A stretch of 64,000 bases of DNA from the NCBI GenBank assembly GCA_964483035.1, contig CAYZZS010000002.1, positions 24,872-88,871 of the forward strand, read 5' to 3'. Position 1 is the stretch's first letter; every line of letters starts with the position of its first letter. The notes under the pieces are model-generated. The model worked only from the letters and a program-made list of their open reading frames with translations. It ran no database searches and had not been told where the DNA came from. A program made the translations under genes and the position numbers. Origin of the DNA: an uncultured Candidatus Saccharibacteria bacterium. Lineage in GTDB: Bacteria; Patescibacteriota; Saccharimonadia; Saccharimonadales; CAYZZS01. Positions 1,588-20,542 of the stretch are shown here, in pieces.

Positions 1588-2487
1588 ATGGCTAAGAAGA
1601 CTACAACATCGACCAGGAGTGCGAAAAAAACAGGAAAAAAGACAACCAATAAAAATAAAACTGCAGCAGTCGCCGTCGATTCGGTAAAAAAACAGCGCAG
1701 TGGCGGCTTGTTTGGTTTTCTGAAGGGAAATGAGGCGGGTCTCAATAAATTTAATTTAGTACTCTCATTCCTGTACTTGGTGCAGGCTATAGCGATTATC
1801 GTGCTAAGTAAGCAGGCGAGTCTACCGGTGACAAGTATGTACGGTACAGAGGATAGTCTAGCTACCGGAAGCGGGGAGATAGTGTCAGCCCAGGCGATAC
1901 GTCATTTGTTTGATGTTAGCTTGCCGTACATATTGGCTGTCATGCTGCTTATTCCGGCGGTATTGCACTTTGTTTCAGCAAATGTATTCGGGGCGCAGTA
2001 TAAGAAGGATGTGCAGGTTGGCCGCAACCGGTTCCGCTGGATAGACTATAGCGTCGGCGGAGGGCTTGCGCTATTGGTGGTAGCTATGCTGAGCGGTGTT
2101 CGGGATATCGCAAGTCTGCTGATGATAGCGGGTTTGAATATCGGGGTCTATCTGCTGGCTTCTATCATTGAATCAGCTGGTGCTCGCGGTGATGCGCGTA
2201 CCGCTCGCCTACGAAATGCAGGACTGCTGCTTGGCGCGCTACCACTTGTTACGATCGCATTGTACGCTATTAGTAGTCTGACGTATGGTGACGATGCGCT
2301 GCCGCTGTATCTCTATGGCTTATATGCGGTTACGATATTGCTTGGGCTGTTTTTGGCCTCGCGGTTGCTGGCGTTTTCAAGGAGTAAAGTCACTGATTAT
2401 CCATATGCAGATCGTCAGTTTAGCCTAGCGGGCTTGCTGGCGAAGAGTGCGGTAGCCTGGATAGTGTTTGCCGGTCTGCTCCGCTAA
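1588..2487 (+). CDS. Heliorhodopsin-like 7TM retinal protein with Lys/Thr-rich basic N-terminal extension
   Basis: Seven predicted TM helices and a long TM1-TM2 loop. Motifs FRWIDYS (TM3) and AKSAVAW (TM7, putative Schiff-base Lys) match my recollection of heliorhodopsin 48C12 (FRWVEYS, AKSALAW); LNKFN...LVQ and ALPVT also align. Confidence 0.6.
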   Translation: MAKKTTTSTRSAKKTGKKTTNKNKTAAVAVDSVKKQRSGGLFGFLKGNEAGLNKFNLVLSFLYLVQAIAIIVLSKQASLPVTSMYGTEDSLATGSGEIVSAQAIRHLFDVSLPYILAVMLLIPAVLHFVSANVFGAQYKKDVQVGRNRFRWIDYSVGGGLALLVVAMLSGVRDIASLLMIAGLNIGVYLLASIIESAGARGDARTARLRNAGLLLGALPLVTIALYAISSLTYGDDALPLYLYGLYAVTILLGLFLASRLLAFSRSKVTDYPYADRQFSLAGLLAKSAVAWIVFAGLLR

Positions 2488-3120
2488 ATGCCAAAAGAGC
2501 ATTTGATTTTTGATTTTGACGGGACGCTAGCGGATAGTCTTCCGCTCTTGATTGCGCTGTTCTATGAAATCACCAAGAGCGAACAGCAATTCAGTGCAGC
2601 TGAGATTGAGCGGCTAAGGAATATGCCGGTGCAGCGTGTTATCAAGGAGCTTGGGGTGCCGCTTTACCGCGTGCCGCGACTGCTGATACACGGGCGAAAC
2701 CAGCTGACGAAACATATAGATGACTTGGCGGCAATTGATGGTATTGTGCCAGTGGTAAAAAAGCTGCACAAGAAAGGGTTTAAGCTATATATTGTCAGCT
2801 CAAACAGTACGCATAATATCCAGCTGTTCTTGGATAGGTATGGAATCGGGGCGTATTTCGAGCATATCTACGGCGGCGTGGGTATATTCGGTAAAGCTTC
2901 AGCGTTGAAGTCTGTTATGAAGCGGGAGAAGTTAGATCGGGGCAGCTGTGTGTATATCGGCGATGAGACGCGGGATATCGAAGCAGCTCGCAAGGCAGGA
3001 GTGGCAGCTATATCTGTTAGCTGGGGGTTCAATGGAAGGCAAATTTTACAAGAGTATCAGCCGGATGCGCTGGTTGATCTGCCAGGGGATCTTCTAAAGG
3101 CGACAGAAGCAGTACAATAG
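2488..3120 (+). CDS. HAD-superfamily hydrolase (phosphoglycolate phosphatase-like)
   Basis: DFDGTLADS motif I, SSNS and GDETRD motifs; start overlaps the stop of the upstream gene (TAAATG). Confidence 0.8.
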   Translation: MPKEHLIFDFDGTLADSLPLLIALFYEITKSEQQFSAAEIERLRNMPVQRVIKELGVPLYRVPRLLIHGRNQLTKHIDDLAAIDGIVPVVKKLHKKGFKLYIVSSNSTHNIQLFLDRYGIGAYFEHIYGGVGIFGKASALKSVMKREKLDRGSCVYIGDETRDIEAARKAGVAAISVSWGFNGRQILQEYQPDALVDLPGDLLKATEAVQ

Positions 3121-3126
3121 AGAGAT

Positions 3127-4377
3127 ATGGAGTCAGTGCGGATAGAAAAGCTAGTGCATGGCGGTCAGGGCATAGGGCAACTGGCTGATGGCCGTAAGGT
3201 GTTCGTATGGAATGCCTTACCTGATGAGTTGGTTTCGGTGCGGTTGACGCGAAAGCGCCGGGACTACGCCGAAGGTATCGCGGAAGGGGTGCTGGAGTCG
3301 TCACCGTATCGCATCGAGCCCAGGGATGAGGCATATTTAAGTACCAGTCCGTGGCAGGTTATGGATTTTGAAGCAGAAAATCGCTATAAGCGGGATATTT
3401 TGATTGAAGCCATGCAGCGTGAGCAGGTAGAGCAGATACCGGGTGACGTACAGTTTTACACTGATGGACGGCAGTGGCAGTACCGCAATAAGATGGAGTA
3501 TAGCTTTTGGGCGGATGATGATGGCCTGCATCTAGCACTGTTTTATCGCGGCAACCACGGTAAGCGGATTGTGGCTGGCAGCAGCATTGCCATGCCGGAA
3601 ATTGATGCAACAGCTCACAAGGTGCTGGCTATACTCAACGAAAACGGCATACGCGGCTCGCAATTAAAAACACTTGTACTGCGCTGCAATCAGGCCGGCG
3701 ATGTCGCAGCTGCGTTGTATGTCAAAGACGAGTCATTCCCGGATATTAAAAAGCTGGCCGAAGTAGGCAAGGGTATCGCTGTGTGCTACTCCAATCCGAA
3801 AAGTCCGGCTAGTGTGCTAACGCGGGAGCTGTACCGCTACGGTGATGTAGCATTAAGCGATACGCTCCTAGGTGTCACAATTACCTATGACGTGTTTTCG
3901 TTTTTCCAGGTCAATCTGCCGGTGTTTGAGACGGTACTGAAGCGTATAGATGAATTCAGCGGCGAGGCAGAAAATATCATTGATATGTATAGCGGCGTCG
4001 GGACTATCGGCGTGGCGCTGGGCGGCGCGAAAACTATCGTGGAGAGCGATCCGCATAACATTCCTTTCGCTCAGCGCAATGCAGAGACGCATGGCATTAA
4101 AGTAGTGCATGCTACGGCGGAACAGGCGCTCGACCGCATTACGGATTACGCTACGATTATTGTCGATCCGCCGCGGGCCGGTCTGCATGCTGATTTGGTT
4201 TCACGGCTGAATGAGGTAAAGCCCCGGCAGATTATGTACCTCAGCTGCAATCCAGCTACTCAGGCTCGGGACATTGCTCGATTACAGGAGAATTTCCGGC
4301 TGCGAATACTGGAGGGCTTTAACTTTTTTCCGCGCACCCCGCATATCGAATCTCTGGCTGTGCTTGAACGGTTGTAA
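3127..4377 (+). CDS. RNA (uracil-C5)-methyltransferase, RlmD/RumA/TrmA family (TRAM + SAM MTase), no Fe-S cysteine cluster
   Basis: DMYSGVGTIG motif I, VDPPRAGL motif IV, YLSCNPAT catalytic-Cys motif; N-terminal TRAM-like beta domain. Confidence 0.85.
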   Translation: MESVRIEKLVHGGQGIGQLADGRKVFVWNALPDELVSVRLTRKRRDYAEGIAEGVLESSPYRIEPRDEAYLSTSPWQVMDFEAENRYKRDILIEAMQREQVEQIPGDVQFYTDGRQWQYRNKMEYSFWADDDGLHLALFYRGNHGKRIVAGSSIAMPEIDATAHKVLAILNENGIRGSQLKTLVLRCNQAGDVAAALYVKDESFPDIKKLAEVGKGIAVCYSNPKSPASVLTRELYRYGDVALSDTLLGVTITYDVFSFFQVNLPVFETVLKRIDEFSGEAENIIDMYSGVGTIGVALGGAKTIVESDPHNIPFAQRNAETHGIKVVHATAEQALDRITDYATIIVDPPRAGLHADLVSRLNEVKPRQIMYLSCNPATQARDIARLQENFRLRILEGFNFFPRTPHIESLAVLERL

Positions 4378-4428
4378 TGGCTGCTTGGTGACTGTATGCT
4401 GTAAGCCATAAGTAATAAGGTAAAAAAC

Positions 4429-5301
4429 ATGGAAAATCAAACCACGGGCCAACCTGTCCCGAATCAGCCGAACACTCAGCCAGTTGCAGCGCAGCCACAG
4501 ACAGTAAGTCAGCCGCCAGTGCAGTCGACGCCGCAGCCAGTGTATCCAGTAAGTCATCCGTCGATGCCGGACGGTGGCGGCATTGCCGCTGCACCGCAGC
4601 CGACTGTTGCAGCCTCTGGCGCCGTTCCTGCGCATGGTTTGCAAGATGCTGAAGGTGATAAGAGTTATGTACTGGCGGTTGTCTTATCGCATCTGTTCGG
4701 TGGTCTCGGAGTTGATCGGTTCTATCTGGGGTATGTTGGTACAGGAGTCGCTAAACTCTTGACGTTCGGCGGCTTCGGTCTATGGGCACTCATCGACGAA
4801 ATCAGACTGATATTTGGAGGTCTGCGCCAGCGGGATGGCAAGTATCTTCGTGGATATGCGGAACATAGTAAAATGTTCAAAATTATCTTCATGATACTGC
4901 TGGGTCTACAGTTTCTAATTGTGCTGCCCCTGTTCTTCGGTTTAATGCTTGCGACGATGACTGGCGTTCAATCGAAGGCTAGGGATACCGAGCGTGAGGT
5001 TGATATCAAAGCCATATACGCGCAAATCGAAGCATATTATGGCACGGAGATGCGATATCCGTCCGAGGCAGAGATTAATAGTGATGTGTTCCGCTCACTC
5101 AATTTCACTGGGCTGGATAAAGAGGCGTACAAGTCGCCAGAAGGAACATCGTACTACTTCGTAAAAACACCGACCAGGGAATCGTACGCCTATTCAGCAT
5201 CACCTATAGGGTGTGATAACATCCTCGTTGACTGCCTGGGCTATGCATTAGTGGCTGCAAAAGAAGACGGAACATTATTTACTAAAACTAACCTTAATTA
5301 A
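4429..5301 (+). CDS. TM2-domain membrane protein with Pro/Gln-rich N-terminal low-complexity region
   Basis: LSHLFGGLGVDRFYLGYVGTGVAKLLTFGGFGLWALIDEI matches the TM2 domain signature; additional TM segment and C-terminal domain. Confidence 0.65.
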   Translation: MENQTTGQPVPNQPNTQPVAAQPQTVSQPPVQSTPQPVYPVSHPSMPDGGGIAAAPQPTVAASGAVPAHGLQDAEGDKSYVLAVVLSHLFGGLGVDRFYLGYVGTGVAKLLTFGGFGLWALIDEIRLIFGGLRQRDGKYLRGYAEHSKMFKIIFMILLGLQFLIVLPLFFGLMLATMTGVQSKARDTEREVDIKAIYAQIEAYYGTEMRYPSEAEINSDVFRSLNFTGLDKEAYKSPEGTSYYFVKTPTRESYAYSASPIGCDNILVDCLGYALVAAKEDGTLFTKTNLN

Positions 5302-15121: not shown

Positions 15122-15805
15122 ATGATACTTCTGGATAGGGTAACAAAAATATATGGCCGCCATGCCAGCCCGGCAATTGAACGGGTTAATTTGCATGTAG
15201 AGCCGAAGGAATTCGTTATCGTAGTCGGCTCCAGTGGTGCCGGAAAATCAACACTCTTGAAGCTTCTGACCAGAGAAGAGAAGCCGTCGAGTGGCAAGAT
15301 TATCGTTGGCGGCGTGGATTATGACAAGTTGCGTGACCGTGACATACCGCTGCTTCGGCGCAAGATCGGCGTGGTATTTCAGGATTTCAAATTACTGCCA
15401 AATAAAAGCGTAGCTGAGAACGTGGCTTTTGCGCTGGAAATAGTCGGGATGGGAAGCCGGGAGATTCATCATACCGTGCCGCGGGTGCTGGATATTGTCG
15501 GATTGAAGGGCAAGGAAGGCCGTATGCCGCAGGAGCTGTCCGGCGGTGAGCGCCAACGCGTGGCAATCGCCCGGGCGATTGTCCGCCAGCCCAAGATCCT
15601 AATTGCTGATGAGCCGACCGGCAACCTTGACCCGAAGCATGCCTGGGATGTGATCCGGGTGCTGGAGAAGATCAACAAATACGGCACTACCGTGTTGCTG
15701 ACAACCCACAACAAGGAAATCGTTGATAAGCTACAGCGTCGGGTCATTACTATCAAAGACGGCAAAATTTTTAGCGATCAAGCCCACGGGGGTTATACCG
15801 GATGA
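15122..15805 (+). CDS. ftsE: Cell-division ABC transporter ATPase FtsE
   Basis: Walker [10 protein letters not shown], signature LSGGERQR, Walker B ILIADEPT; co-linear with E. coli FtsE. Confidence 0.9.
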
Positions 15806-16758
15806 GGAACGAGAGCACGATCAAGAGCCGACTTATTACACTCGGCCGGATTGTCAGGGCAGGCTCGAAAAACCTGTTTCGTAACGCCTGGCTCAGTATC
15901 GCGGCCATTGCAGTCATGGTCGTGGCACTGACCATTATTCTGCTGGCTGTCGTGTTGAATGTGACGGCGCGGAATGCGATCAGCGAACTGTCAAAGAACC
16001 TGAAAGTCTCGATATATCTGCATGAAGATGTGTCGGATCAGCGCCGGCAGGAGTTGGAGCAAGCGCTGCGGGCAAGCGAGTACAGCGCGTCTGTGGAGTA
16101 TATTTCCAAGGATCAGGCGCAGTCCCGATTCACCCAAAGTTTTCAGAATGATCAAGAGCTCCTTGAGGGGCTGATGTTGGCTGGTGCTGATACTCTGCCG
16201 GCGTCGTACGAGGTAGGGGTTAGTGACCTGAGCCGGATGCAGGAGATTGAAACGATAGCTGGCAGGGAAGATTTTTCCGATATTGTCGAGAGCATCACAC
16301 TTGGCCGGACTGACGCCCGTCGCACTATTGATCGAGCTGCCTCAGCGCAAGGCTTCATTACTCGCGCCAGTGTATTCTCGGCTACGGTCTTCACCATAGT
16401 TTCGGTACTGATTATTTTCAATACCATCCGTATGGCGATCTTTACCCGTTCTGAAGAGATTCGAATCATGAAGCTGATTGGAGCCACGCCAAGCTATATC
16501 CGTGGCCCGTTTTTGGTCGAGGCCTCGCTTTATGGCATTATCGCTGGATTGATAGCCGCCGGTGCGGTATATTCCATTGTCTTGTCTATCGGGTCCAAGA
16601 TCGCTTCGCAGCCGGAGTTTGCGCAAACATATAGCTTCTTCACGCTACCGGCATCTGTTGCTATGGTGCTGGTGTGCTCGGTGCTTGCCGGTATTTTGGT
16701 CGGTGTCTTCTCCAGCGCCCTGGCTATGGAGCGGCACTTGAAGCTAAAGCATTGGTAG
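15802..16758 (+). CDS. ftsX: Cell-division permease-like protein FtsX
   Basis: 4-bp overlap with ftsE (ATGA), TM1-large extracellular loop-3 TM topology typical of FtsX. Confidence 0.9.
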   Translation: MRNESTIKSRLITLGRIVRAGSKNLFRNAWLSIAAIAVMVVALTIILLAVVLNVTARNAISELSKNLKVSIYLHEDVSDQRRQELEQALRASEYSASVEYISKDQAQSRFTQSFQNDQELLEGLMLAGADTLPASYEVGVSDLSRMQEIETIAGREDFSDIVESITLGRTDARRTIDRAASAQGFITRASVFSATVFTIVSVLIIFNTIRMAIFTRSEEIRIMKLIGATPSYIRGPFLVEASLYGIIAGLIAAGAVYSIVLSIGSKIASQPEFAQTYSFFTLPASVAMVLVCSVLAGILVGVFSSALAMERHLKLKHW

Positions 16759-16855: not shown

Positions 16856-18028
16856 ATGCGAAAAAACATAAAAACTACCAGAATAAAACAGTATCCAGCA
16901 TTTGTTGTCATAGCCGCCTGCTTGCTGGCGGCTGTTGGCTTTATGGGTAGTTTTCAGGGCAAGACCGGTGCTGAGTCCATTGATGAGCTGCGGGAAAAGT
17001 CAGCCCAGCTTCAGTCAGAAATCAATGAGGCGAATCGCAAGGCAGCTGAACTTGCGGACCAGGCCAGTTCACTAGAGAAGGCAGTTGCCGAACTGGATAT
17101 TCAGATTGAGCAGGCCACCAAAGAAATTGAACTGACAAACGTAAAAATTGCCGAACTGGAAGAAGAGCTGCGTATTACACAGGCCGAACTCGAACGTCAG
17201 AAAGACCTCCTCAAAGCCAACATGCGCGCTCTCTACAAACGGGGCGGCGCCTCCACAGTTGAAATGCTTGCCGCCAGCGACAGCTTCACTGAATTTATTA
17301 ACGACCAGGAATACCTGGAGCGGCTGAAGGTTTCGATACAGCAGTCGACGGAGAGGGTGATTGCCCTAAAGCAGCAGATTCAGGCGCAGCAGACCGAGCA
17401 AAAAGCACTGCTCGCTAAACAGGAGGCTGCCAAGCTGTCACTGGATAACACACGGGCAGAACGTGCTAACTTGCTTGAAGCGACTCGCGGCGAAGAGGCG
17501 CGATTTAGGGAGTACAGCCGCAGCCTGGCCGATCGGCAACGTGAGATTAACCGGGAACTGCTTCGCCGAAGCCGTATTGTCAGTACCGGCGGGTCGGGGA
17601 ACTATCCTTGGGCTCATGCGCTTTGCTCCATTACGCATCAGGTGGACGGTGGATGCTGGGATTACGAATGGTATGTCGACAGTTTCTGGAACCGACAAGA
17701 TCCCTGGGGCTATTATTATCGGAACTGTACGTCATATGTCGCCTGGCGAAGTGCGCAGAACGGGCTTGAGGTGCCGGGACTAGGTAATGGCGGTGCCTGG
17801 GCAAGTAACGCCTGGAAGCACAATCTGCCCACTGGCAAGACGCCAAAACGGGGTGCATTTGCAGTGTTTACGACCGGCGGCTATGGCCATGTGGCGTACG
17901 TTGAAGATATTAAAGGTGGCGAAGTGCTAATAAGTGAGTATAATTTTGTAGCGGACGGTGTGTATTCCGAGCGCTGGATTCCACAAAACCAGCCAACTAG
18001 CTATGTGTATACACCGTGGTCATATTAA
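16856..18028 (+). CDS. Coiled-coil + CHAP-domain peptidoglycan hydrolase (PcsB-like)
   Basis: Signal-anchor, roughly 200-aa coiled coil, C-terminal CHAP with Cys (NCTSYVAWR) and His (GHVAYVE). Confidence 0.8.
   Translation: MRKNIKTTRIKQYPAFVVIAACLLAAVGFMGSFQGKTGAESIDELREKSAQLQSEINEANRKAAELADQASSLEKAVAELDIQIEQATKEIELTNVKIAELEEELRITQAELERQKDLLKANMRALYKRGGASTVEMLAASDSFTEFINDQEYLERLKVSIQQSTERVIALKQQIQAQQTEQKALLAKQEAAKLSLDNTRAERANLLEATRGEEARFREYSRSLADRQREINRELLRRSRIVSTGGSGNYPWAHALCSITHQVDGGCWDYEWYVDSFWNRQDPWGYYYRNCTSYVAWRSAQNGLEVPGLGNGGAWASNAWKHNLPTGKTPKRGAFAVFTTGGYGHVAYVEDIKGGEVLISEYNFVADGVYSERWIPQNQPTSYVYTPWSY
17180..17342 (+). repeat. 163-bp segment identical to 18421-18583 (copy 1, inside CHAP gene coiled-coil)
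   Basis: Direct comparison of the two stretches (acaggccgaactcgaacgtcag...gtttcgatacag) shows no mismatches. Confidence 0.85.
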
Positions 18029-18058: not shown

Positions 18059-19270
18059 TTGCGAGAGGGTAAAAGCAGCATAAGGCACAAACAAAGAGAG
18101 CGCCAGGCAACACAAATACGGAAAAAAAGCAGCAGGCTGCTATTTGGAATTGCTACCGTGCTTATTGCAGCTGGCACCTACTGCGGGTACCTGACGCATT
18201 CAACGGCAAGCGCACAGTCGGTTAATGAGCTCCGGGCGCGTTCCGCGCAGTTGGAGGCAGAGATCAAAGCCAATGAGCAGCGGGCAGCGGAACTACATAG
18301 TCATGCTGAGACATTGGCCGAGAAGCTCCAAGAGCTGCGATACGAGATCGAGCATGCCAATAAAGAGATTCAGCTGACTAAGTTGAGGATCGAAGAGCTC
18401 ACTAAAAAGCTGGAAGAGACACAGGCCGAACTCGAACGTCAGAAAGACCTCCTCAAAGCCAACATGCGCGCTCTCTACAAACGGGGCGGCGCCTCCACAG
18501 TTGAAATGCTTGCCGCCAGCGACAGCTTCACTGAATTTATTAACGACCAGGAATACCTGGAGCGGCTGAAGGTTTCGATACAGGAATCGGCGGTAAAAGT
18601 AGTTGAGTTGCAAAAGCAGATCGAAGCAGAAAAGCAGGAGCAGGAAGCCCAGAAGCAGCACCAGGAAGAGCAGCGCCGTGTCCTTGATGCCAAGCGTCAG
18701 GAGCAGAGCGATCTCCTGGCTCGAACCCAAGGAGAGGAAGCGAAGTACAAGCAGGTGGTTGCCCAGCAGCGCCGAGAGCTGAAAGAGGCAGAAGATAAGC
18801 TGGCAAGACTGCTATCAGCCGGAACGACCGTTTCTCAAGGGCCGGTTTCGCGCGGCCAGAAAGTTGGCTCTCTCGGCAGTACCGGTTATTCAACCGGACC
18901 CCATCTGCATTTCATGGTTCGTCATAATGGCGCGACCGTAAACCCTTCGGCTGGGGGGCGCAGTCTGATTAATGGCTACTCATGGCCGATTGCCGGCGGT
19001 GCGGGTTGGATTTCGCAGCACTATGGCTGCGTGGCGCCTGCTGGATTTTATGCTCAAAGCTGTAATGGGGGCCGCAACAGTGTGCACAGTGGTATGGATA
19101 TTGCTGCCAGTGCCTATACGAGCATTGTTGCTGCAGCTGATGGTGAAATCGTGTTCCGCGGCTGTTCCGGTGCACTCGGATACGTTGTCGTGATTGACCA
19201 TGGCGGTGGGTGGCAGACCTGGTATCCGCATATGGTGACGCCATCCGGCCAGGTTTACGGCTACTGCTAG
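18059..19270 (+). CDS. Coiled-coil + M23 (LytM) metallopeptidase (EnvC-like); M23 motifs in circularly permuted order
   Basis: [13 protein letters not shown] (HxH block, aa ~270-285) precedes HSGMD (HxxxD, aa ~343) and IDHGGG/YPHM. The canonical order is the reverse. Confidence 0.8.
18421..18583 (+). repeat. 163-bp segment identical to 17180-17342 (copy 2, inside M23 gene coiled-coil)
   Basis: Same as above; both encode [54 protein letters not shown]. Confidence 0.85.
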
Positions 19271-19303: not shown

Positions 19304-20542
19304 GTGAGGGGACGGGTGTCGGAATTAGACAAACAATCAAACCATGAACGCAAACTAGGCTTTTCCGGTATTCGGGCTGCCGCCGCTGTAATAGGTGTGA
19401 GCGGTGTATTCGCGCTCGGCGTTCTGTTCGGCCAAGGCAAGATAACGATCGGTGCGGATGGTGTATACCGGCAATCAGCCAATACTTCCTTGCCGGCTGA
19501 TCTGGATTACTCAAGTGTCGAGGAAGTCTATGATGCGCTCAGGGCCAGCTATGATGGCAGATTAAGCGTAGAAGATCTCATTAACGGTCTAAAGCGGGGA
19601 TTGGTCGAAGCGAGCGGCGATCCGTACACTGAATTCTTTGACGAAGAGGCTGCCCGGGAATTTAGCAACGAACTAAACGGTTCATTCACCGGTATCGGTG
19701 CGGAGTTAGGTCGGGAGAATGAGTCGATAATTATCGTGGCGCCCATCAGCGGATTTCCGGCAGAAAAAGCCGGCCTGCGCCCCCGTGATGTTATTGCCGA
19801 GGTTGATGGCGAGAGTGCTTATGGCTGGACCGTGCAGCAGGCAGTCAGTAAGATACGCGGCCCAGAAAACACCAACGTAACGCTGAAGGTAGTCCGCGGG
19901 GGAAGTGAAGAGCTGACGTTCGAAATTACGCGGGCCCAAATCACCATCCCGAGCGTTACATCGGAGATTCTGGACGGTAATATCGGCTACCTGCAGATTA
20001 GCCGGTACTCCGAAGACACCTCTCGGCTTGCCCGGACAGCGGCTGAAGACTTTAAGGCAGCCAGCGTGAAGGGTGTAATATTGGATCTGCGCAGTAATCC
20101 CGGCGGACTGCTTGATTCTGCCGTGGATGTCGCTAGTCTCTGGCTGGACAACAAGACAGTACTTGAGGAAAAGCGTGGCGATGTCGTAATAAAGACGTTT
20201 AGGTCCCGTGGTCGGCCGGTACTGCTTGGAGTGCCGACAGCTGTACTGATCAACGAAGGAAGCGCCAGTGCCAGTGAGATTACTGCCGGCGCCCTCAAGG
20301 ATCATGGTGCAGCGACGCTTATTGGAGTAGAGTCGTTTGGGAAGGGCAGCGTACAGCAGGTGGAAGAGCTGCGCGGTGGCGGCGCACTGAAAGTGACGAT
20401 TGCCCGTTGGTTTACGCCACATGGAGTAAATCTTGACAAGGAGGGCATCAAGCCGGATCAGAGTGTCGAATTTACTGAGGACGATTACAAGAACAATCGT
20501 GATCCGCAAAAAGACGCTGCAATCAAATTCCTCAACCAATAG
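19304..20542 (+). CDS. ctpA: Carboxy-terminal processing protease (S41, PDZ-containing) CtpA-like
   Basis: PDZ region (GFPAEKAGLRPRDVI), S41 catalytic region (LDLRSNPGG, GSASASE), GTG start. Confidence 0.85.
   Translation: MRGRVSELDKQSNHERKLGFSGIRAAAAVIGVSGVFALGVLFGQGKITIGADGVYRQSANTSLPADLDYSSVEEVYDALRASYDGRLSVEDLINGLKRGLVEASGDPYTEFFDEEAAREFSNELNGSFTGIGAELGRENESIIIVAPISGFPAEKAGLRPRDVIAEVDGESAYGWTVQQAVSKIRGPENTNVTLKVVRGGSEELTFEITRAQITIPSVTSEILDGNIGYLQISRYSEDTSRLARTAAEDFKAASVKGVILDLRSNPGGLLDSAVDVASLWLDNKTVLEEKRGDVVIKTFRSRGRPVLLGVPTAVLINEGSASASEITAGALKDHGAATLIGVESFGKGSVQQVEELRGGGALKVTIARWFTPHGVNLDKEGIKPDQSVEFTEDDYKNNRDPQKDAAIKFLNQ

Follow-up and report, generated by a model that had tools for sequence, protein, structure and literature searches.

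One gene in the window, by which we mean the complete 64-kb stretch of DNA analyzed here, encodes a cell-wall peptidase domain of the M23 family whose two halves are joined in swapped order. On the evidence of sequence searches, this domain is a circularly permuted M23 peptidase domain, and the rearrangement extends across a clade and appears to leave this familiar enzyme domain functional. Few cell-wall enzymes and antibacterial leads have been studied as thoroughly as the M23/LytM peptidases, to which lysostaphin belongs, and circular permutations are a known mode of evolution. We hold with good confidence that the protein is a permuted, active-type M23 peptidoglycan endopeptidase and most likely an FtsEX-controlled septal hydrolase of Saccharibacteria.

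Coordinates for the gene, its parts and its neighbors are given in Table 1. The 403-residue product consists of a signal or transmembrane segment, a coiled coil of approximately 200 residues, and an M23 domain of 150 residues. Hydropathy is highest at residues 27-41, and this N-terminal hydrophobic segment is a predicted signal peptide or membrane anchor. The N-terminus aligns with that of a paralogous CHAP hydrolase encoded in the same locus. The coiled coil is presumed to be an FtsX-docking module, and the coiled-coil family PF24568 (CC_PcsB) is found in members of the permuted family. Approximately five residues are all that separates the coiled coil from the first beta-hairpin of the M23 domain. 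Segment A of the domain carries the HxH motif, in which H282 is assigned from sequence as catalytic and H284 as a zinc ligand. Segment B contains a WPIAGG motif, a loop with two cysteines (C324 and C335), the HxxxD motif (H343 and D347), and the YPH motif with the catalytic H391. An NCBI protein identical to the window protein, P0295, is 370 residues long and by its length would begin at V34, at the cost of part of the hydrophobic export segment. The TTG start of the 403-residue frame is a better fit to the N-terminus of the CHAP paralogue, and the deposited start codon was probably called too far downstream.

Table 1. Coordinates of the permuted M23 gene, its parts and its neighbors in the 64-kb window.
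Feature	Position	Strand	Evidence
ftsE, ABC ATPase of FtsEX	15122..15805	+	TIGR02673 278.1 bits (cutoff 264.85)
ftsX, permease-like partner with extracellular domain	15802..16758	+	FtsX_ECD 4.3e-16, FtsX 1.5e-14
Paralogous coiled-coil and CHAP hydrolase, PcsB-like	16856..18028	+	CHAP 1.4e-19, weak CC_PcsB
Permuted M23 gene, whole	18059..19270	+	PF01551 85.2 bits (gathering cutoff 28.7), summed over two stretches; orthologues found
Basic N-terminal region with hydrophobic segment and ASA-Q motif	18059..18214	+	
Coiled-coil domain, aa ~53-255	18215..18823	+	Weak coiled-coil Pfam matches; homology to CHAP paralogue
Segment A, aa 257-297, canonical C-terminal M23 half (beta-hairpin, HxH)	18827..18949	+	
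Linker, aa 298-308, old C-terminus to old N-terminus	18950..18982	+	Between two HMM matches
Segment B, aa 309-393, canonical N-terminal M23 half	18983..19237	+	
New C-terminal tail (10 residues) and stop	19238..19270	+	Tail conserved in close subfamily
ctpA-like S41 C-terminal processing protease with PDZ	19304..20542	+	Peptidase_S41 6.4e-48 plus PDZ

The swapped order was proposed in the original prediction from motifs that we find where it placed them, a 31-residue block at residues 266-296 and HSGMD at 343-347; YPHM lies at 389-392. Three kinds of search confirm that the canonical C-terminal half precedes the canonical N-terminal half. The family profile PF01551 scores well above its gathering cutoff in two separate stretches. 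In a phmmer search against the PDB, residues 342-393 align with residues 245-296 of 3slu, and residues 258-297 align with residues 300-339 of the same chain. A home-built HMM made from 73 canonical M23 domains places profile positions 84-125 on residues 8-48 of the native domain and positions 21-81 on residues 84-144. The two matches do not overlap and tile the profile once, and the home-built HMM gives a score of 119.8 bits. When the domain is un-permuted in silico, the two matches are replaced by a single match over positions 21-125 with a score of 116 bits. The un-permuted sequence also matches each of 38 solved M23 chains, among them LytM (2b0p), lysostaphin, ShyA and EnvC, in one collinear stretch, and is collinear with canonical M23 proteins at 40-55% identity over 97-131 residues. 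The motifs run HxH, HxxxD, YxH here and HxxxD, YxH, HxH in canonical domains; since the canonical order is absent, the domain is a topological variant and not a standard member of the family. Neither the protein nor the sequence downstream of it retains any trace of a duplicate of either M23 half, and the ctpA start lies 34 nt beyond the stop codon, which leaves no room for a missing half. With both halves tiling the canonical profile once in exchanged positions, the proposal that the domain has truly been circularly permuted and given new termini is well supported.

The five zinc and catalytic residues expected of an M23 peptidase (H282, H284, H343, D347 and H391) are all present, as had been predicted. 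The further suggestion that the reading frame stops exactly where the next canonical block would begin stands in part. The frame does end soon after the catalytic histidine, but the stop does not coincide with the start of the block because the break falls approximately two residues after that histidine and is followed by a family-specific tail of 10-12 residues.

We predicted the structure of a 154-residue construct using AlphaFold2 with an alignment of 100 sequences (A2). The model is a single compact domain with a mean pLDDT of 94.1 and a pTM of 0.89, in which 137 of the 154 residues have a pLDDT of at least 90, and its strands correspond to the canonical M23 strands. This run replaced one with a three-sequence alignment (A1), which was unusable at a pLDDT of 32.6. 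A Foldseek search of the PDB returned no significant match for the model, the best being 3slu with E = 1.3 and TMq 0.45, and the only significant structural neighbors of the model are M23/LytM domains. Partial matches confined to M23 domains are what sequential aligners are expected to give for a permuted protein. We take the lack of a significant PDB match as an effect of the permutation and not as an argument against M23, although it does not amount to proof of the whole fold. The fold and the zinc and catalytic residues (H343, D347, H284; H282, H391) are probably those of a normal, active-type M23 domain. The linker between the old termini varies between 5 and 12 residues across the family and is short in some members, at approximately five residues in P0002. 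Such short connections, together with the intertwined dimer in which PcsB crystallizes (PMC11627006), raise the question of a three-dimensional domain swap, in which the two half-domains would complement one another in trans across a coiled-coil dimer and the active site would form only in the oligomer. We think this very unlikely, given that the AlphaFold2 monomer already forms one compact domain with a pLDDT of approximately 97 across the linker, and that the linkers of 5-12 residues are retained as ordered sequence.

The permuted topology is shared by a large family. A first homologue search recovered P0001 (72% identity) and P0002 (52% identity), both arranged like the window protein and ending at the same C-terminal point. 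Exhaustive HMMER searching of 1.84 billion cluster representatives (clustered at 50% identity) gave 99 permuted proteins among the 150 best matches; these are 350-420 residues long, have GSTG...HxH approximately 60 residues before HxxxD, and end just after YxH. A profile search of a 5.8-billion-protein set added 115 new best matches, all but two of them permuted (113). P0295, already mentioned, is one of the matches from this profile search and is 100% identical to the window protein. Assemblies from NCBI, JGI, ENA and Logan are the sources of the permuted proteins. When one genome was scanned for each GTDB species, nine loci (L002-L010) were identified whose identity to the full length of the permuted domain is 59-75%, four of them labeled as Candidatus Saccharibacteria or Saccharimonadales MAGs and five labeled simply as "bacterium", while six loci from outside the CPR carry canonical M23 domains. 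Across the 100-sequence alignment, H33 and H35 of HxH and H94 and D98 of HxxxD (domain numbering) are invariant, and the YxH histidine (H142) is present in 99 sequences. The new C-terminus lies 2-34 residues past the catalytic histidine across the family and 2-7 residues past it in members that lack a tail.

Conservation on this scale also bears on whether the permutation could be an artefact, with an assembly, frameshift or annotation error or a chimeric contig making an ordinary M23 gene look permuted. The window is probably metagenome-assembled, its nearest relatives are all MAGs, and the first search yielded only two full-length relatives. Examination of orthologues, which the original prediction had named as a check, shows that nine independent MAGs and more than 200 database proteins agree with the window in order, in break point and in where the protein ends, and this agreement excludes misassembly. 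The identical protein in NCBI and the mere 34 nt between the stop codon and ctpA point the same way, and the chance of an artefact is negligible.

Four cysteines are present in the window protein, C324 (19028-19030), C335 (19061-19063), C369 (19163-19165) and C403 (19265-19267), and all are invariant in the close subfamily. The loop that precedes HxxxD contains either two cysteines or none in 97 of 100 sequences. The cysteine that follows the RG motif (C369 here) and the cysteine of the tail occur together in 29 sequences, are both missing from 60, and occur singly in 11 (29/3/8/60), a co-occurrence with a Fisher p of 1e-14 that is not corrected for phylogeny. Tails that bear a cysteine are 10-34 residues long. 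This paired covariation suggests two disulfides, one of which would staple the new C-terminal tail to the domain, and C403 at the terminus is probably bonded to C369. The pattern also suggests an extracytoplasmic enzyme.

The genomic setting of the permuted gene is as constant as its topology. The arrangement ftsE-ftsX-[permuted M23] is found in nine of nine Saccharibacteria loci wherever upstream sequence exists, and ctpA-pyrG follows wherever the contig continues; pyrG also lies downstream of ctpA in the window. In related loci ftsE is directly upstream, and ftsX is syntenic in L002-L010 and L017-L019. The ctpA-like gene is downstream in eight of the nine Saccharibacteria loci (L008 ends earlier) and in L017/L018. 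The ftsEX block also surrounds the distant members P0152 (L017/L018) and P0194 (L019), and the adjacency of ftsE, ftsX and the permuted gene holds down to approximately 40% identity. In other bacteria, proteases of the CtpA type break down or process hydrolases of the cell wall, and a functional link between the CtpA-like protease and the conserved C-terminal tail is conceivable. ARAGORN and Rfam searches of the 64-kb window found no tRNA gene and no Rfam family at the gathering threshold. All 2-kb bins have positive GC skew, and the plus strand carries most of the long open reading frames between 9 and 30 kb, a pattern that fits a long, co-oriented stretch of leading strand in a small genome.

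The CHAP paralogue shares more with the permuted protein than its N-terminus. The coiled coils of the two proteins are 53% identical over 228 residues, including an identical block of 52 residues, and the underlying DNA (17103-17402 in the CHAP gene and 18345-18644 in the permuted gene) is 81% identical over 300 nt. Identity of this kind suggests either gene conversion or selection that keeps one FtsX-docking surface in both proteins, so that two different hydrolases may share one FtsEX. The CHAP paralogue is present in L009, where the gene order is opposite, and in L017/L018, and it is absent from L002-L008 and L010.

FtsEX governs coiled-coil hydrolases and activators that dock on the extracellular domain of FtsX, such as PcsB, CwlO, RipC and EnvC, and the docked proteins are autoinhibited until released by ATP-driven movement (PMC11627006, PMC7668044). 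The permuted protein resembles PcsB (coiled coil and CHAP), CwlO and RipC (coiled coil and NlpC/P60) and EnvC (coiled coil and degenerate LytM) in combining an export signal, a coiled coil of approximately 200 residues and a C-terminal hydrolase-type domain, and like the members of that class it is encoded next to ftsEX. Its coiled-coil architecture and its position directly downstream of ftsEX make it a likely FtsEX-controlled septal hydrolase. It would be expected to bind zinc and, judging from gene order and by analogy with these systems, to have peptidase activity, to bind FtsX and to be regulated through FtsEX. The polypeptide chain enters the domain at the beta-hairpin that normally comes after the catalytic YxH strand and reaches the old C-terminus by way of the GSTGxSTGPHxH block. 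From there a linker of 5-12 residues leads to the old N-terminus, and the chain ends 2-34 residues after the catalytic histidine. The coiled coil would dock on the extracellular domain of FtsX, and ATP-driven movement of FtsEX would switch on the peptidase so that peptide cross-links are cut at the division site.

The same architecture and linkage to ftsEX are shared with EnvC of E. coli, and many members of the permuted family are annotated by JGI as "septal ring factor EnvC (AmiA/AmiB activator)". The window protein also has a weak full-length match to chain 8hd0_E among the EnvC structures (6TPI, 8HD0, 8TZL). The protein might on these grounds be a non-catalytic LytM factor that only binds or activates another hydrolase, either an amidase or the neighboring CHAP protein. 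EnvC-type LytM factors have lost their zinc and catalytic residues. The permuted family, unlike these factors, keeps HxH and HxxxD invariant and the third histidine nearly so across 100 members, and in most related genomes the cluster has no gene for a second hydrolase. A role of the EnvC kind is thus unlikely, and because all five residues are conserved the JGI label is probably a functional misnomer.

Saccharibacteria live as epibionts on other bacteria, and lysostaphin and other secreted M23 enzymes are classic bacteriolysins. The permuted protein could by this reasoning be a weapon or feeding tool that the episymbiont directs at the cell wall of its host, with the linkage to ftsEX incidental. 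Three observations make this improbable: the adjacency to ftsE and ftsX persists at great sequence divergence, the long coiled coil has a homologue in a PcsB-like paralogue, and the Pfam scan shows no SH3b or LysM domain for targeting the cell wall. We favor the FtsEX-controlled septal peptidase as the function of the permuted protein.

Canonical M23 proteins with coiled coils occur elsewhere in the CPR. In a third homologue search (A3), 108 of 118 new matches were coiled-coil M23 proteins in canonical order, and those named by organism come from Paceibacterota, Moranbacteria, Campbellbacteria and Yonathbacteria. These proteins and the permuted family have homologous coiled coils. The ancestor of the permuted family was probably a canonical coiled-coil M23 protein of the kind that still exists in other CPR bacteria. 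The permutation probably arose once, in the lineage that leads to Saccharimonadia, when the domain was duplicated in place and the outer halves were then lost. BLAST comparison of the un-permuted domain with canonical sequences did not single out the coiled-coil M23 proteins of the CPR as nearest relatives. In L019, the locus of the distant member P0194, the two topologies adjoin each other: ftsE-ftsX is followed by a canonical coiled-coil M23 gene (2113..3411, 432 residues) and then by a permuted one (3553..4737, 394 residues).

Tandem M23-M23 proteins in canonical order (P0178, P0193, P0219, P0222, P0224, P0226, P0228 and others) match the permuted profile across the junction of their two domains, where the C-terminal half of domain 1 meets the N-terminal half of domain 2. 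Judged from such matches, the duplication with which a duplication-and-deletion route would begin is common in the M23 family. We considered P0193, P0219, P0228 and P0238 as duplication intermediates and rejected them, as they are without a coiled coil and have unrelated N-terminal regions; they attest tandem duplication of M23 and nothing more.

We found no description of a permuted M23, LytM or lysostaphin domain in the open-access literature searched. The proteins are already in the databases under labels such as "peptidoglycan DD-metalloendopeptidase family protein", "EnvC", "MepM/NlpD" and "CwlO-like", and it appears that their topology has gone unrecognized, at least in that literature. 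No NCBIfam equivalog matches the permuted protein at its cutoff. In comparison with canonical M23/LytM domains (LytM 2B0P, lysostaphin 4QP5/4LXC, NMB0315 3SLU and ShyA 6U2A; PF01551, MEROPS M23), the halves are swapped, the new N-terminus lies at the hairpin after the catalytic histidine, a short linker bridges the old termini, and one subfamily has a C-terminal tail with a predicted disulfide staple. The permuted domain likewise distinguishes the family from the canonical coiled-coil M23 proteins of other CPR bacteria and Firmicutes-like relatives, and retention of all catalytic residues distinguishes it from EnvC. It also differs from RipC, in which the linker is 52 residues long (PMC11627006), in that the coiled coil joins the domain beside the active-site strand with almost no linker.

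The nearest precedents for the permutation lie outside the M23 family. Circularly permuted families of NlpC/P60 (YaeF/poxvirus G6R and LRAT-like) are described in the part of PMC6403190 that cites Anantharaman and Aravind 2003. On the account given in that part, the likeness is that whole clades of a cell-wall-hydrolase superfamily have a permuted catalytic domain and a swapped catalytic order. The NlpC/P60 proteins differ in fold and in chemistry, being papain-like cysteine peptidases where the family described here is a zinc metallopeptidase, and there is no evolutionary relationship between the two. The barrel-sandwich hybrid ("HABAS") domains, among which structure-based comparison places peptidase M23, occur at the superfold level in three topologies related by circular permutation (PMC11515920). 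The families set apart by those permutations are distant ones, NusG and RNAP inserts for example, and no permuted member within M23 is reported there (PMC11515920).

A tentative and somewhat doubtful possibility is that the permutation is adaptive and not neutral, with FtsEX-driven motion of the coiled coil acting mechanically on the wall of the active site and the new C-terminus serving as a built-in gate to the groove. Chain entry would have moved to the hairpin beside the catalytic histidine and been fused almost directly to the last coiled-coil helix, and the new C-terminus at the groove would be either free or stapled by a disulfide. If the permutation is adaptive, FtsEX would have an on/off mechanism distinct from the restraining arm of EnvC and from the occlusion of PcsB and RipC.

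A clade of permuted and apparently active M23 peptidases implies that the fold tolerates new termini right beside its active site. Permuted or split enzymes of the lysostaphin type could be modeled on the natural break point and linker. Because of the permutation, profile tools report each of these proteins as two partial matches, and structure searches that depend on sequence order come close to missing them; annotations that read "M23 family" or "EnvC" could be put right by the hundred in CPR genomes. The permutation sets the ends of the chain at the active site of an enzyme under regulation and may thus be relevant to the gating of the hydrolase by FtsEX, and the family provides a natural experiment on the passage of the FtsEX signal through a coiled coil to a catalytic domain. 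In Saccharibacteria, which are ultrasmall epibionts with a division machinery that has received little study, the permuted M23 protein is a likely FtsEX-controlled division hydrolase.
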